Shown here in pieces: positions 19,797 through 32,236 of a DNA stretch of 64,000 nucleotides. A model generated the notes under the pieces. It did not search any database and had not been told where the DNA came from. It saw only the letters and a program-made list of their open reading frames with translations. This DNA is from Oscillospiraceae bacterium. Its GTDB lineage: Bacteria > Bacillota > Clostridia > Oscillospirales > Ruminococcaceae. How positions within the stretch are numbered: position 1 is the first letter of the stretch; each line of letters opens with the position of its first letter. The stretch covers positions 78,323 through 142,322 of the forward strand of contig JAITFZ010000015.1 in assembly GCA_031280965.1 (NCBI GenBank), given 5' to 3'. A program made the translations under genes and the position numbers.

Positions 19797-19843
19797 ATAT
19801 ATGAGTGTATCTTATATTATTCACATCCTTAACACCCATATCT
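19797..19843. mobile_element. candidate attL/attR junction at the spoVAD breakpoint
   Basis: spoVAD homology ends at AAT AAT AT| (19821-19814). Imperfect dyad ATATGAGTGT (19799-19808) / ACACCCATAT (19832-19841) centred on the break, starting 41 bp after the recombinase stop. Confidence 0.65.
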
Positions 19844-20421
19844 GTTACCTTCCCGAATGTCACCGCTTTTATATAAGGCGGGTTTTTCCTCGGCGCCACA
19901 ACCACACACCCTGCCGCCGTCGCCGTCCACTGTGCTGTCGGTGTACGCTGTCCGCCGTAATTCAAGGGGAAGCGGAACTGCCGCTCCGCAGAACAAAAGT
20001 GCGACGAAGTCATTGCTGCCGCGTTCTGTGCTACGCCCGCCTCAACAAAAACCGAAGCTAAAGCGAGGCTTTCAGCCATAGTCGAACATGCGCCGAAAAG
20101 CCCGATAAAAGGTATATCGAAATCTCTGCCTCCGTATGATGAGCAGGTACATTGATTAAGCAAATCTCCCGCAAAAATAAAACTAATGTCGGTTTCTGCG
20201 AGCCGCCCTTTTTCGAGAGCGGTGCGAAATGCGTTCTTTTGCAAAACCACCTCCGCTTTTTCCCAGCTGCCGTCTTCGCCGAGGGCGGCTTCTTCGCCGA
20301 TATAGTCAAAATAATCTGCTAAAGGGCCCTTACCTTCTTTCGGACCGACCGCTGATGCATACGAAAGCACGGACGGCGCGTTGTCAAGGTTGATTGTGCC
20401 TTTTCCGTAATAATTTCCCAT
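19814..20421 (-). pseudogene. spoVAD: 5' half (codons 1-202) of stage V sporulation protein AD, interrupted
   Basis: SpoVAD motifs VGPKEGKGPL, SWEKAE, AGDLLNQ, GLFGACST, SSHFCSAERQFRFP and QWTATAAG. Homology stops after DMGVKDVNN, where MGAAMAPAA is expected. Confidence 0.9.
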
Positions 20422-20432
20422 GTGTTCTCCCC

Positions 20433-20882
20433 TTACCCCATAACTGTTCCCATAATATAATAAATCAAACCGTAAAGCACGGATGCGGCGATTCCGTAGA
20501 CTATGACCGGCCCTGCAATTACGAACATCTTCGCCCCCACGCCGAGTATAAAACCTTCTGTTTTGAATTCAAGCGCGGGCGCAACCACGGCATTGGCAAA
20601 GCCTGTAATCGGCACGATTGTTCCCGCTCCCGCGTGTTTGGCAAGCTTGTCGTAAACCTTAAACCCTGTCAGTATAGCAGCAAGTCCGATAAGCGTAATT
20701 GAGGTTAATGCGGCAGCTGTTTCTTTTCCCGCGCCGTATCGCATGTATAAATGCAAAAAAGCTTCGCCTGCAACGCATATTAATCCACCGACAAAAAAAG
20801 CCTTAGGCAAAGTTTTATGCAGTTTGGTTTTAGGAGAAGAAGCTTTGAGCATTTCATTGTATTCGCTGTTTGTAATTTTCAT
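20433..20882 (-). CDS. spoVAC: stage V sporulation protein AC
   Basis: AFFVGGLIC, YDKLAKHAGAGTIVPITGFAN, EFKTEGFILGVGAKMF.IAGPVIVYG. Confidence 0.96.
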   Translation of the reverse strand: MKITNSEYNEMLKASSPKTKLHKTLPKAFFVGGLICVAGEAFLHLYMRYGAGKETAAALTSITLIGLAAILTGFKVYDKLAKHAGAGTIVPITGFANAVVAPALEFKTEGFILGVGAKMFVIAGPVIVYGIAASVLYGLIYYIMGTVMG

Positions 20883-20910
20883 TTTATCACTCCCGTTTTT
20901 CTTCTGTTTT

Positions 20911-20939
20911 TAGATTAAACTAAAAAAAATATCTTATCC
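20911..20939 (-). promoter_or_regulatory. putative forespore (sigmaG/sigmaF-type) promoter of the spoVA operon
   Basis: GGATA-17-TAATCTA on the - strand versus consensus GNATR-17/18-CATWHTA. Confidence 0.45.
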
Positions 20940-21078
20940 TATAAAAAAAGCGGAAAAACATGAAAAAGTTTACAATTTGTTCACACATTACCATCAGAAA
21001 TGTACTATAATTAAAGTGTGAAAATGTCTTTTGATTTAAAAGCGCAGTTATAGCTTAGTTGAAAGGAGGGCGGAAATC

Positions 21079-21585
21079 ATGACAGTAGGAGCAATCGGAA
21101 GCGCCGGAATTCAAACGGGAGCTGTTTATTCTTCTCCGGCTATGGAAGATGTAAACAGAATTAACCCGACTGATTTGGCTCAAATAAACGCACGCGATTA
21201 CGCGGGAAACAACAATGCGGACACAATACGTCCGGTTGAAACGTATGAGCCTGATACCGGTGAACAGGCTGATTACGCGGCAGTTAACTTTATCAGAAAC
21301 AGCTTTCCGGAGCCAATTCCCGAGAGTCGTATGCAAACTTTCAGCCTTGAAGAGTTCGTTGAGGGAGCATCGTCAAGGAGCGGTGAAGTTCAGGTTCAGT
21401 CGCGTCAGGCTGAGCAGGCTGTAAGCGAAAGCGCCACAGTTCAGACTTCTTATGAAATTGCACAGGAAGATACAGGCTTCAGACTTACTCCCGCCCAACA
21501 GCGCGGAGTTGAGGAATATGTCAGAGTGCAGAACTACACTGACCCTGTGAGTGTCAGCATGGCGGGCGCGCAAATTGTAGCTTAA
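21079..21585 (+). CDS. hypothetical acidic protein, 168 aa
   Basis: Strong AAAGGAGG RBS; no family recognised. Confidence 0.75.
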   Translation: MTVGAIGSAGIQTGAVYSSPAMEDVNRINPTDLAQINARDYAGNNNADTIRPVETYEPDTGEQADYAAVNFIRNSFPEPIPESRMQTFSLEEFVEGASSRSGEVQVQSRQAEQAVSESATVQTSYEIAQEDTGFRLTPAQQRGVEEYVRVQNYTDPVSVSMAGAQIVA

Positions 21586-21721
21586 AATTATATTCAAATA
21601 TTTGAATGGATTCAATCCGCACTCTCTCGGTCATGCTCCAAAATAACGGCTCAGATATTTCAACTACCCGTGGGCGCACTTAATCGTAGCGCCTATTGGT
21701 ATTTTCGGCGTAAGGAGGGGT

Positions 21722-22283
21722 ATGTATAAGGTGCTCTAAATTAATTAAAATAACATTTTCCATTACACTTTTTGTTTCTTTTATTGTATTCATTACATCA
21801 TGTAGTGAGAATAATAAACCCTCGGAAACAGAAATGTTTGACGATTTACATTTTATTTATCCGGAAAAGCCAGTGTTCAATGGTTCCTTTGATGGCATTC
21901 CGGATGATTTAGGGGTTGAGGCAGAAAGCGATTACTCGAATATTGTCGCTGTCACAGAATTTAACGAATACGACAGCACAGTAGATGAAATTAAATTCTT
22001 TGTCATAAACAATAATCCGAACAAGGGCTTTTGGGTTAGTACGATAATACAACTTGAACGCCTTGAAAATAATGAATGGGTTCAACTTCAATTTGCAGAA
22101 CCTCCAACAAGCATAGATTTTATGCAGTGGGGATTTGCGTTTGCTAAGACATCAGATGGATTAGTAGAGCATGAATGGAAGTTGGTTACATCTTATTTGG
22201 CTGAGGATTTAATTCCCGGCAATTATCGTATTATCGTTTTCACAGGGGGCATTGATTTATATGCCATATTTAAAATTATGTAA
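21722..22283 (+). CDS. Ig-like domain lipoprotein with an apparent +1 frameshift near the start
   Basis: AAGGAGG RBS + ATG at 21722 gives MYKVL-stop. The frame of ORF 21834 reads upstream as KLIKITFSITLFVSFIVFITSC (lipobox). Body has the QLERLENNEW...LIPGNYRII Ig-like pattern. Confidence 0.55.
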
Positions 22284-22354
22284 AAAACGGAGGACTTTTC
22301 ATGAAAAAACTACTTTCGCTTTTCTCGTTAATTATAGCAATTATTATATTCAAT

Positions 22355-22393
22355 AAACAAAAACCGTCTGTTTTAGAAAGACGGTTTTTGTTT
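22355..22393. terminator. bidirectional terminator downstream of dapL
   Basis: AAACAAAAACCGTCT-9nt-AGACGGTTTTTGTTT perfect 15-bp stem. Confidence 0.85.
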
Positions 22394-22407
22394 TGTTATG
22401 CTTATTA

Positions 22408-31355: not shown

Positions 31356-31382
31356 CAATTACGAATAAAAAAACTTTAAAAG

Positions 31383-31415
31383 AAATACGGGCTGTTTAAA
31401 AGCCCGTATTTTTTT
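31383..31415. terminator. bidirectional terminator
   Basis: AAATACGGGCT-7nt-AGCCCGTATTT followed by T tract. Confidence 0.85.
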
Positions 31416-31420
31416 AGCAT

Positions 31421-31448
31421 TTATACTAAAATCCATTTAACAGTATTA
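31421..31448. repeat. modular intergenic repeat, copy 3 (minimal, ends only)
   Basis: TTATACTAAAATCCATTTAACAGTATTA joins the left and right ends of copy 1. Confidence 0.6.
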
Positions 31449-31547
31449 CCACCATCCGCGTCTGCGATAACGGCAATTACGTTTTTGTGTTATACAGCCT
31501 GCCGTCCACCACGGAATGAACCGACCTCTTCTTGGGAAAAAAGGCAT
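31446..31547 (-). CDS. 33-aa Arg/Trp-rich peptide (not in the ORF track)
   Basis: GGGGGA RBS 7 nt before ATG; MPFFPRRGRFIPWWTAGCITQKRNCRYRRRGWW. Confidence 0.5.
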   Translation of the reverse strand: MPFFPRRGRFIPWWTAGCITQKRNCRYRRRGWW

Positions 31548-31618
31548 AACATGTTCCCCCTTGTAATTAATATGACGATTTATGTCGTATTACAGGTTAT
31601 GCTATTCGCGCTAAAAGT

Positions 31619-31648
31619 GACACCGACTTTTTTAAAAAGCATAATATG
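31619..31648 (+). promoter_or_regulatory. putative mother-cell (sigmaK/sigmaE-type) promoter of the cotJ operon
   Basis: GACA-17-CATAATATG versus sigmaK consensus ACA-16/17-CATANNNT. Confidence 0.5.
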
Positions 31649-31682
31649 AATTAAGAATTTAATTCAGAAAGGAAGGAATTTT

Positions 31683-31853
31683 ATGCACAATAAAATGAAT
31701 ACGGGACATCCGAGGGTCGGTTACGCATACGTTGTACCGCAACGGCTCGGCAAGGTTTATCCGCCGAAAAAGGCGCTTATGGCGGGTACTGTTTTCCCCG
31801 AATTAAACATAGGCATTCAAGACTATACAAGGGGGATTTGGAATGGAAAGTAG
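31683..31853 (+). CDS. cotJA: spore coat associated protein CotJA (not in the ORF track)
   Basis: 56 aa; YAYVVPQRLGKVYPPKKALMAGTVFPELN matches the CotJA pattern; AAGGAAGG RBS; overlaps the cotJB start. Confidence 0.88.
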   Translation: MHNKMNTGHPRVGYAYVVPQRLGKVYPPKKALMAGTVFPELNIGIQDYTRGIWNGK

Positions 31854-32130
31854 AATTACAAACGATTGTTGCAAACCTATACCGCAGGACTGCTCGCTGC
31901 TGATGGATAAGTTATGCGAGGCACACTTTTTTGCACATGACCTGAAGCTTTATCTGGACACGCATCCGGACGACCAAGCGGCACTTGATATGTATAGGGA
32001 AGCATGCAGGCAATACTGCGCCTGCGTTGAAGCTTTTGAAAGTTGCTGTTATCCTTTGCGTGAGTGCAGTGCGGGCGAAAACGGCGAGTGGGATTGGCTT
32101 TGCGGAGCATGGCCGTCGGAAAGGATATAG
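31843..32130 (+). CDS. cotJB: spore coat protein CotJB
   Basis: F..HDLKLYLDTHPDD..AL..Y, YPL and W.W...WP.E. Confidence 0.93.
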   Translation: MESRITNDCCKPIPQDCSLLMDKLCEAHFFAHDLKLYLDTHPDDQAALDMYREACRQYCACVEAFESCCYPLRECSAGENGEWDWLCGAWPSERI

Positions 32131-32138
32131 GTGAATGT

Positions 32139-32236
32139 ATGTTTATTTTTGAAAAAAGAACGCAGATGCCTGTCAGAATACATAATAAAAATCCTAAGCT
32201 GGCGGGGTTTATACTTACGCAGTACGGCGGACCCGA
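32139..32236 (+). pseudogene. cotJC: 5' fragment (32 codons) of CotJC manganese-catalase family gene, interrupted
   Basis: MFIFEKRTQMPVRIHNKNPKLAGFILTQYGGP matches the CotJC N-terminus (..YEK.LQYPV.I..PNP.LA..I..QYGG.DGEL). Sequence diverges after CCC GA and stops at 32285. Confidence 0.88.

Follow-up and report, generated by a model that had tools for sequence, protein, structure and literature searches.

The gene-intervening elements described in the literature that was searched are compact inserts in genes of the mother cell, from which they are simply cut out. One of these, the gin element, comprises little more than the recombinase GirC and a small factor, GirX. This element is located between the two halves of gerE in Bacillus cereus ATCC 10987 and rearranges during sporulation (PMC5595907); the halves of the gene interrupted by skin flank one discrete element of 2.6-48 kb, and a skin-like element in cotJC of Laceyella sacchari is listed as compact (both 10.1101/2022.02.25.481979). 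SPbeta, which interrupts spsM, employs the integrase SprA and the directionality factor SprB, and spsM is reconstituted in the mother cell by means of a sporulation promoter on the factor gene (PMC4191935, PMC5499854). The present analysis concerns a window, i.e., the whole 64-kb stretch of DNA that was analysed (C27:78323-142322), of the 2.01-Mb draft genome G000 (36 contigs, assembly completeness 98.8%) of an Oscillospiraceae bacterium, in which two spore genes, spoVAD and cotJC, are broken at 19817/19818 and 32235/32236, respectively. Judged from their sequences, these breaks are attachment (att) junctions of two different large serine recombinase (LSR)/att pairs, and the complementary pieces that could be found are on other contigs, across ordinary and essential chromosome. 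C27, C36, C5 and similar labels denote contigs of G000, whose size is at the small end of the genus range, while other G numbers denote its relatives.

The original prediction had described spoVAD and cotJC as half-length genes at the edges of a 12.4-kb block, and the breaks were confirmed. Neither 3' half is present within the 64-kb window, and a profile search returned no intact spoVAD or cotJC paralogue in the 2.01-Mb assembly. The expectation that the missing 3' halves are located elsewhere in the genome was borne out by a whole-genome profile search, in which complementary sequence was found, as opposed to simple decay or intact paralogues. In the window, the Pfam SpoVAD profile was matched over positions 1-197 at C27:98135-98728 on the minus strand (window 19813-20406), the last family-like residues of this frame being ...GKVTDMGVKDVNN. 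The 3' piece, codons 203-337, is on contig C36 and is followed by spoVAE; here, profile positions 195-328 were matched at C36:11804-12205 on the minus strand. When joined, the two pieces comprise 202 + 135 codons, i.e., a protein of 337 amino acids (aa), compared to 336-337 aa in six relatives; the split is complementary and in frame, with no codon lost.

The crossover of the spoVAD junctions is located in codon 202/203 and has the core AA, represented on the plus strand by TT at 19817-19818. In gene orientation, attL1 consists of GGATGTGAATAA followed by TATAAGATACACTCATATATG, and attR1, on C36, of CATATATATTTGTATCTTATCAA followed by CATGGGAGGC. The element-side arms of attL1 and attR1 are near-perfect inverted repeats (TGTATCTTAT and ATAAGATACA; CATATAT and ATATATG), and the arm beside the recombinase gene rec1 exhibits a CATATAT..GTGTA motif that is common to homologous elements. 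About 75 bp beyond attR1, C36 encodes a thioesterase, an epimerase and a surface protein.

The rec1 gene is directed toward the spoVAD break and stops 56 bp short of it, and its product possesses the domains PF00239, PF07508 and PF13408 and the conserved catalytic serine that define an LSR. It is present as a single copy in G000, a genome with ~21 large serine recombinase genes, and its nearest paralogue is 34% identical. The sequence TTGACT-N17-TACAAT is found upstream of rec1. Between aspS and rec1 is an open reading frame (ORF) of 50 codons, ORF50, a partner which the spoVAD-type recombinases share and which across the rec1 family exhibits the motif IP..GNE.IY.G.IK.AKEI...SA*; a small ORF is conserved upstream of both rec1-type genes and the rec2-type genes described below. 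Upstream of ORF50 is the sequence GAATA-N17-CAAAATA and downstream of it a terminator-like hairpin, and the pattern G[ACT]ATA-N17/18-CA.A... occurs upstream of ORF50 and of two homologues, i.e., in three diverged elements. This motif bears some resemblance to forespore promoters, which in such AT-rich DNA may be due to chance.

Five of the six rec1 homologues that were looked up (57-71% identity) adjoin a spoVAD half in other Clostridia, and elements of this family are found in both orientations, depending on which way the AA core points. For example, the closest homologue, P0002, is followed by the 3' part of spoVAD, spoVAE and yloC, while P0004 is located inside a mobilisable element with a relaxase, P0014 inside a conjugative element with type IV secretion genes, and P0005 downstream of genes that are metabolic only. 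The rec1 family thus has a specific target, integrating at one AA dinucleotide of spoVAD.

The sequence after the intact cotJA and cotJB reads MFIFEKRTQMPVRIHNKNPKLAGFILTQYGGP, and similarity to the family stops at the GA at 32235-32236. The second cotJC piece (codons ~33-125; residues 28-125) is located on C5, directly after the recombinase gene rec2 (C5:1508-3106), with positions 23-140 of the Mn-catalase/CotJC profile matched at C5:3105-3416 and attR2 at about C5:3123-3146, beside rec2. The product of rec2 possesses the same three domains as that of rec1 and is likewise an LSR. The att2 core is GA, with GCGG ~4 nt from the core in four of four half-sites; att1 and att2 are unrelated in core (AA versus GA) as well as in arms, in agreement with the earlier proposal of two unrelated junctions and at least two recombinase/att pairs. 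All three rec2 homologues that were looked up (61-69% identity) adjoin cotJA-cotJB or the cotJC 5' piece, some members of the family being integrases of elements with relaxase or type IV secretion genes, and these adjacencies indicate that the rec2 family integrates at a GA in cotJC codon 33/34.

In total, cotJC is divided into at least three pieces. A second break was found on C5 (in the region 3105-4843) after ...SKGDP, where intact relatives continue IADL..., and it is abutted by a third serine recombinase gene, rec3, whose start codon, preceded by a good ribosome-binding site, is apparently ATT. Piece 3, i.e., the last ~60 cotJC codons, was not found in the assembly. The complementarity of cotJC is therefore only partial: pieces 1 and 2 fit, while piece 3 is missing. 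On the element side of attL2, a promoter and one flagellin-family gene precede yloC, and on that side this gene probably represents all the cargo that the cotJC element has left. The promoter, a near-consensus TTGACT-N17-TATAAT at window 32290-32330, is just inside the element-side attL2 arm and reads outward into the flagellin gene; a very similar promoter sequence occurs at the same place in the relative G017 (about 198,540), despite a different recombinase and insertion site.

Table 1. Features of the two junctions and their surroundings, in window coordinates.
Feature	Position	Strand	Basis or remark
aspS (584 aa)	16216..17970	+	77 bp upstream of recombinase module
ORF50, candidate recombination directionality factor	18047..18199	+	conserved small ORF
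rec1, intact 485-aa LSR	18301..19758	+	Resolvase + Recombinase + Zn_ribbon_recom
attL1	19790..19845	-	crossover dinucleotide + arm comparison
spoVAD 5' piece, codons 1-202	19816..20421	-	ORF + profile
spoVAC, intact	20433..20882	-	ORF + Pfam
ordinary chromosomal genes between breaks	21079..31355		synteny + Pfam
cotJA and cotJB, intact	31683..32130	+	ORF + Pfam
cotJC piece 1, codons 1-33	32139..32236	+	ends at crossover GA
attL2	32215..32265	+	CAGTACGGCGGACCC[GA]GGAGCCGCCTTGTTTTATTGCG
flagellin-family gene	32361..33257	+	behind TTGACT-N17-TATAAT just inside attL2
yloC (YicC-like)	33312..34190	-	start of housekeeping run

The original prediction treated the 12.4-kb block between the two breaks as a unit, a view that did not hold. 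The block is syntenic in G080, G052 and G100, it contains no mobile-element genes, and it represents ordinary chromosome caught between two independent attL junctions. Its interior (21079..31355) holds ORF168, a Big_14 ORF, an aminotransferase, an HD protein, a Bmp lipoprotein, an Orn/Lys/Arg-decarboxylase-like gene, FapA, EpsG, a membrane ORF and a collagen-repeat protein. The latter, encoded at 30210-31355 just upstream of the cotJ operon, is a secreted protein of 381 aa with collagen-like repeats (GPQ, GGGTTPPS, GRD). The flanks were correctly described as non-phage DNA, since Pfam scans identified housekeeping and sugar-use genes: to the left of the spoVAD break, proS, aroA, aroC, GH10, GH4, CBM proteins and aspS, and then rec1; to the right of the cotJC break, flagellin, yloC, a Met-gamma-lyase-like gene, two M42 peptidases and valS, and further to the right rqcH, NIF3, trmK, pgm and sugar-use genes.

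Typical members of the rec1 and rec2 families have the recombinase at the end of a 7-80 kb element. At the present locus, the element side of attL1 comprises rec1, ORF50 and aspS, and then at least 96 kb of C27. Transfer genes between att sites, by which an integrative mobilisable or conjugative element would be recognised, were not found: relaxase and type IV secretion genes are absent from the 18 kb to the left of attL1, the 31.8 kb to the right of attL2 and the 2.5 kb to the right of attR1. Nor does a single discrete, dispensable element separate the halves, which are distributed over C27, C36 and C5 with aspS and valS among the flanking housekeeping genes. In contig coordinates, the minimum path is ~49 kb from attL1 to attR1 and ~37 kb from attL2 to attR2. 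Contig-end overlaps of 119, 119 and 73 bp chain C3-C12-C28-C36, the C9-C36 link being weak (23 bp), and when this chain is counted the spoVAD partner sites are probably ~200 kb or more apart. The rejoining of spoVAD or cotJC would need a large inversion or excision of chromosome with essential genes, as had been anticipated from the window, and the location of the partner pieces on C36 and C5 agrees with this.

In four relatives aspS follows gatA-gatB, and in G047 and G052 it is then followed by an orthologue of the attR1-side thioesterase gene; yloC comes directly after spoVAE both in G100 and in the P0002 host, and the P0005 host has the Met-gamma-lyase-like and M42 genes ~5 kb beyond spoVAE. 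The aspS-thioesterase and spoVAE-yloC adjacencies of these relatives indicate that the DNA flanking the junctions is ancestral chromosome. They are the only usable ancestral adjacencies, the gene order in this genus (~80% DNA identity) being too fluid to reconstruct the ancestral history, and several histories fit both of them, i.e., two inversions, nested inversions, or recombinase-mediated attP x attB events. A simple cassette exchange, with the right end of C36 joined to the left end of C5, was rejected because C36 continues into C28, and the phage genes on C36 and C9 were unsupported as cargo of the cotJC element, since C9 runs on into non-phage genes. Exact-protein look-ups of the flagellin and the thioesterase returned no match, probably due to differing start-codon calls.

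Both junctions are carried by contigs of a different assembler (Logan, run SRR14710903), which may derive from the same reads as the draft, and the chimeric assembly that had been put forward as a possible explanation of the breaks was not seen. One of these contigs comprises aspS-ORF50-rec1-spoVAD 5'-spoVAC and the block, while the other extends from cotJA-cotJB through flagellin and yloC onward. The collagen-like repeats of the 30210-31355 protein also break the Logan contig.

Dispersed gene halves were furthermore found in G017, the only single-contig genome of the genus (complete, 2.69 Mb). In this genome, cotJC profile positions 1-63 are matched at 198,620-198,805 and positions 61-198 at 873,266-873,640, on the same strand, and the two halves join perfectly (LTDIG to TEELSHLE). 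The att arms are inverted repeats (GGGATCATTCC and GGAATGATCCC), a 532-aa recombinase is located beside the 3' half in the locus 873266-875202, and ordinary genes are found beside both junctions. The presence of dispersed cotJC halves in a complete genome shows that they are real in this genus. Among 60 relatives, cotJC is uninterrupted in ~25 and broken in at least 20, near profile positions ~32, ~63 or ~147-151, i.e., at three or more insertion sites; in G080 and G100 the cut is at the QYGG site that is also cut in the window. A single full-length spoVAD match was obtained in 33 of 40 relatives, while G012 and G036 possess spoVAD in two pieces (80 kb apart on one contig) and G006 possesses fragments; many truncated SpoVAD proteins of 213-232 aa are present in public data. 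The yqfD gene is in two pieces on different contigs in G012 and G006, indicating that the set of interrupted sporulation genes in the genus is wider than spoVAD and cotJC. A search among 5.8 billion proteins returned no intact SpoVAD of the same species, the best match being 90% identical. The reconstructed attP1 24-mer had no match in public metagenome or genome contigs, nor did a degenerate family-level attP pattern in public contigs.

The sporulation gene content of G000 is incomplete in several respects. No match was found in this genome for SpoIIP, which is present in 36 of 40 relatives, or for GPR, present in eight of eight; YqfD, present in 13 of the 14 other high-quality genomes searched, had no real match in G000. 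In G041 and G015, yqfD adjoins a phoH-like gene, a position at which G000 has other genes and no contig end. The SpoIVA C-terminal domain (SpoIVA_C) is likewise absent from the assembly: spoIVA (C18:2535-5436) leaves the family after ...APSIHI (~codon 405), and a 568-aa serine recombinase gene converges on this break. Besides the second cut in cotJC, spoIVA is thus also cut by a recombinase gene; the six other genes tested are intact. That gpr, spoIIP, yqfD and the spoIVA C-terminus could not be found in an assembly of 98.8% completeness speaks for a sporulation programme in decay.

Other recombinase sites and repeats were also encountered in G000. On C28 (20820-43739), there is a gap of 21.5 kb between two ORFs which in G047 and G052 make up a single contiguous gene, and the insert, a compact and ordinary-looking element, includes three tandem serine recombinase genes (22952-27805). 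On C20 (83407-85966), spo0A is located ~290 bp downstream of a serine recombinase gene that encodes 500 aa and has a zinc-ribbon ORF upstream of it, while a 192-aa ORF beside a recombinase on C14 returned no Pfam match. A repeat of ~80 bp is present in 112 copies in G000, none of them inside the window, and sometimes forms tandem 80-bp arrays; examples are C36:4232-4312, C27:76706-76866 and C13:15950-16020. It ends in TTGGTGAAGAAAGGACTTTATGAAAAyATG exactly at the start codons of unrelated genes (among them dnaB, hpt and two recombinases), and thus supplies their ribosome-binding site. One region with two copies of the repeat returned no Rfam match.

The proposed origin of the arrangement is as follows. 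Members of the rec1 (with ORF50) and rec2 families would have integrated at spoVAD and cotJC, the attR junctions holding the complementary pieces on C36 and C5. The original mobile elements would then have been reduced to their recombinase modules, with rearrangement of the chromosome at these modules or beside them, such that no less than 37-49 kb of housekeeping DNA, and probably over 200 kb, now separates the partner sites. The chances are judged to be about even that the junctions are now stranded, i.e., no longer resolved, in a lineage that looks to have recently begun to lose sporulation; this reading is based on the incomplete cotJC in the assembly and on the several core sporulation genes that were not found.

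A number of observations weigh against stranded junctions. Both spoVAD pieces are open, and their dN/dS values of 0.03-0.07 equal those found between relatives; columns that are otherwise invariant show only three lineage-specific changes, versus 2-15 in relatives, and the pieces are free of any sign of decay. Similarly, rec1, ORF50, rec2 and the small ORF of rec2 are intact, with well-preserved att arms. The six genes tested, i.e., those for Spo0A, SpoIVB, SpoIID, SpoIIGA, SpoIIIAE and SpoIIR, are intact in G000, and the missing genes could be located on short unbinned contigs between repeated elements, of a kind that often cuts sporulation genes in this genus. In addition, G017 retains spoIIP, yqfD and spoVAD while its cotJC consists of two perfect halves 675 kb apart.

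Several of these observations would fit a programmed or conditional long-range rejoining, in which a directionality factor turns the recombinases to attL x attR recombination during sporulation, the proposed factors being ORF50 for rec1 and the small ORF upstream of rec2 for rec2. LSRs of the phiC31/Bxb1 type need no particular site topology, and rec1, given a directionality factor, could thus still restore spoVAD through inversion or loop-out of DNA. In B. subtilis, cotJC is a coat gene of the mother cell, and the spoVA operon depends on sigma-G and is expressed in the forespore. Accordingly placed, cotJC would be rebuilt in the mother cell, which is disposable, to the extent that its pieces permit, and spoVAD in the forespore, where an inversion would be heritable and harmless, with the integrase alone reversing it after germination. 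Programmed rejoining is a tentative proposal that is possible rather than probable. It is favoured by the perfect complementarity of the undecayed spoVAD pieces, the intact recombinase and small-ORF modules with their family-wide conservation of the small ORF, the forespore-type promoter-like motif in three diverged elements, the independence of LSRs from site topology, the wide occurrence of split spoVAD and split cotJC with open pieces, and the complete genome of G017, which keeps core sporulation genes and clean att arms. On the other hand, cotJC piece 3, the spoIVA C-terminus, gpr-spoIIP and yqfD were not found, the promoter motif may have arisen by chance in AT-rich DNA, and no unscrambled form (attP or attB) was detected in public contigs. 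Of the multi-gene developmental rearrangement put forward in the original prediction, the att junctions and the separated complementary halves were thus substantiated, while a cotJC that cannot be rebuilt and the core sporulation genes that were not found speak against it.

In more general terms, it is conceivable, if somewhat doubtful, that LSRs and their small partners rebuild split sporulation genes across tens to hundreds of kb, be it in the present lineage or in relatives that are competent to sporulate, such as G017. That such rebuilding might amount to a developmental inversion or splitting of the chromosome itself, taking place for spoVAD in the forespore, i.e., the germline, and being reversed after germination, is regarded with the same reserve.

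A heritable on/off switch, i.e., phase variation of sporulation capacity unrelated to development, in which segments are flipped or exchanged in growing populations such that a subpopulation possesses intact spoVAD and cotJC, is improbable. The near-consensus, vegetative-type promoter before rec1 and the occurrence of the spoVAD element in both orientations within its family would be in keeping with it. It is established, however, that LSRs do not act on attL x attR in the absence of a directionality factor, no alternative junction was seen in any assembly searched, and cotJC would still not be completable. Slightly less probable again is an assembly or binning artefact, in which compact insertions would owe their contact with housekeeping genes to chimeric joins or to mixed strains in a metagenome bin: although the draft consists of 36 contigs and many recombinase genes are near contig ends, the Logan contigs (possibly from the same reads) reproduce both junctions, rec1 is single-copy with so distant a paralogue, the att arms pair correctly between contigs, and the halves are similarly dispersed in a complete genome that consists of one contig.

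Should the sites remain in use, bacteria would perform programmed rearrangements on the scale of the chromosome, including in the germline; if the stranded reading is correct, the locus would be a clear example of how site-specific recombinase modules scramble a chromosome and leave gene halves stranded as sporulation is lost. Here, and in G017, ordinary, essential chromosome separates both att sites of such a system, and one of the targets, spoVAD, would work in the future spore. In anatomy, each junction matches those of skin, SPbeta or gin (PMC4191935, PMC5499854, PMC5595907), and cotJC has one previous listing as a target (10.1101/2022.02.25.481979). The literature search returned no paper on an element in spoVAD, on a forespore-gene target or on halves separated by essential chromosome.

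Among the described systems, skin in sigK, with SpoIVCA in Bacillus subtilis and with CD1231 and the CD1234 directionality factor for skinCd in Clostridioides difficile, resembles the present locus in its in-frame cut at LSR att sites, in an LSR encoded at the edge of the insert, and in a directionality expected to come from a small factor. It differs in that its target is a mother-cell gene, whereas here spoVAD, which is expressed in the forespore in model species, is also a target, and in that its halves flank the element, whereas here they are on different contigs with housekeeping genes between them. In Laceyella sacchari, cotJC is interrupted as it is here, although in the present genome there are two cut sites and dispersed pieces. 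The clostridial elements of the Tn4451/TnpX and Tn5397/TndX type are comparable in that some rec1 and rec2 homologues are integrases of relaxase or type IV secretion elements, while in G000 the junctions are accompanied by recombinase modules only, with no transfer genes beside them. SPbeta shares with this locus an LSR and att sites with inverted-repeat arms, but it is a complete, active prophage whose excision removes phage DNA only, whereas here housekeeping DNA is present between the sites. Finally, gin is, as here, a gene-intervening element that is not a prophage, and its content of GirC and GirX would resemble rec1 and ORF50; however, gin is located between both gerE halves, while the rec1 module touches one spoVAD half only, the other being at least 49 kb away.

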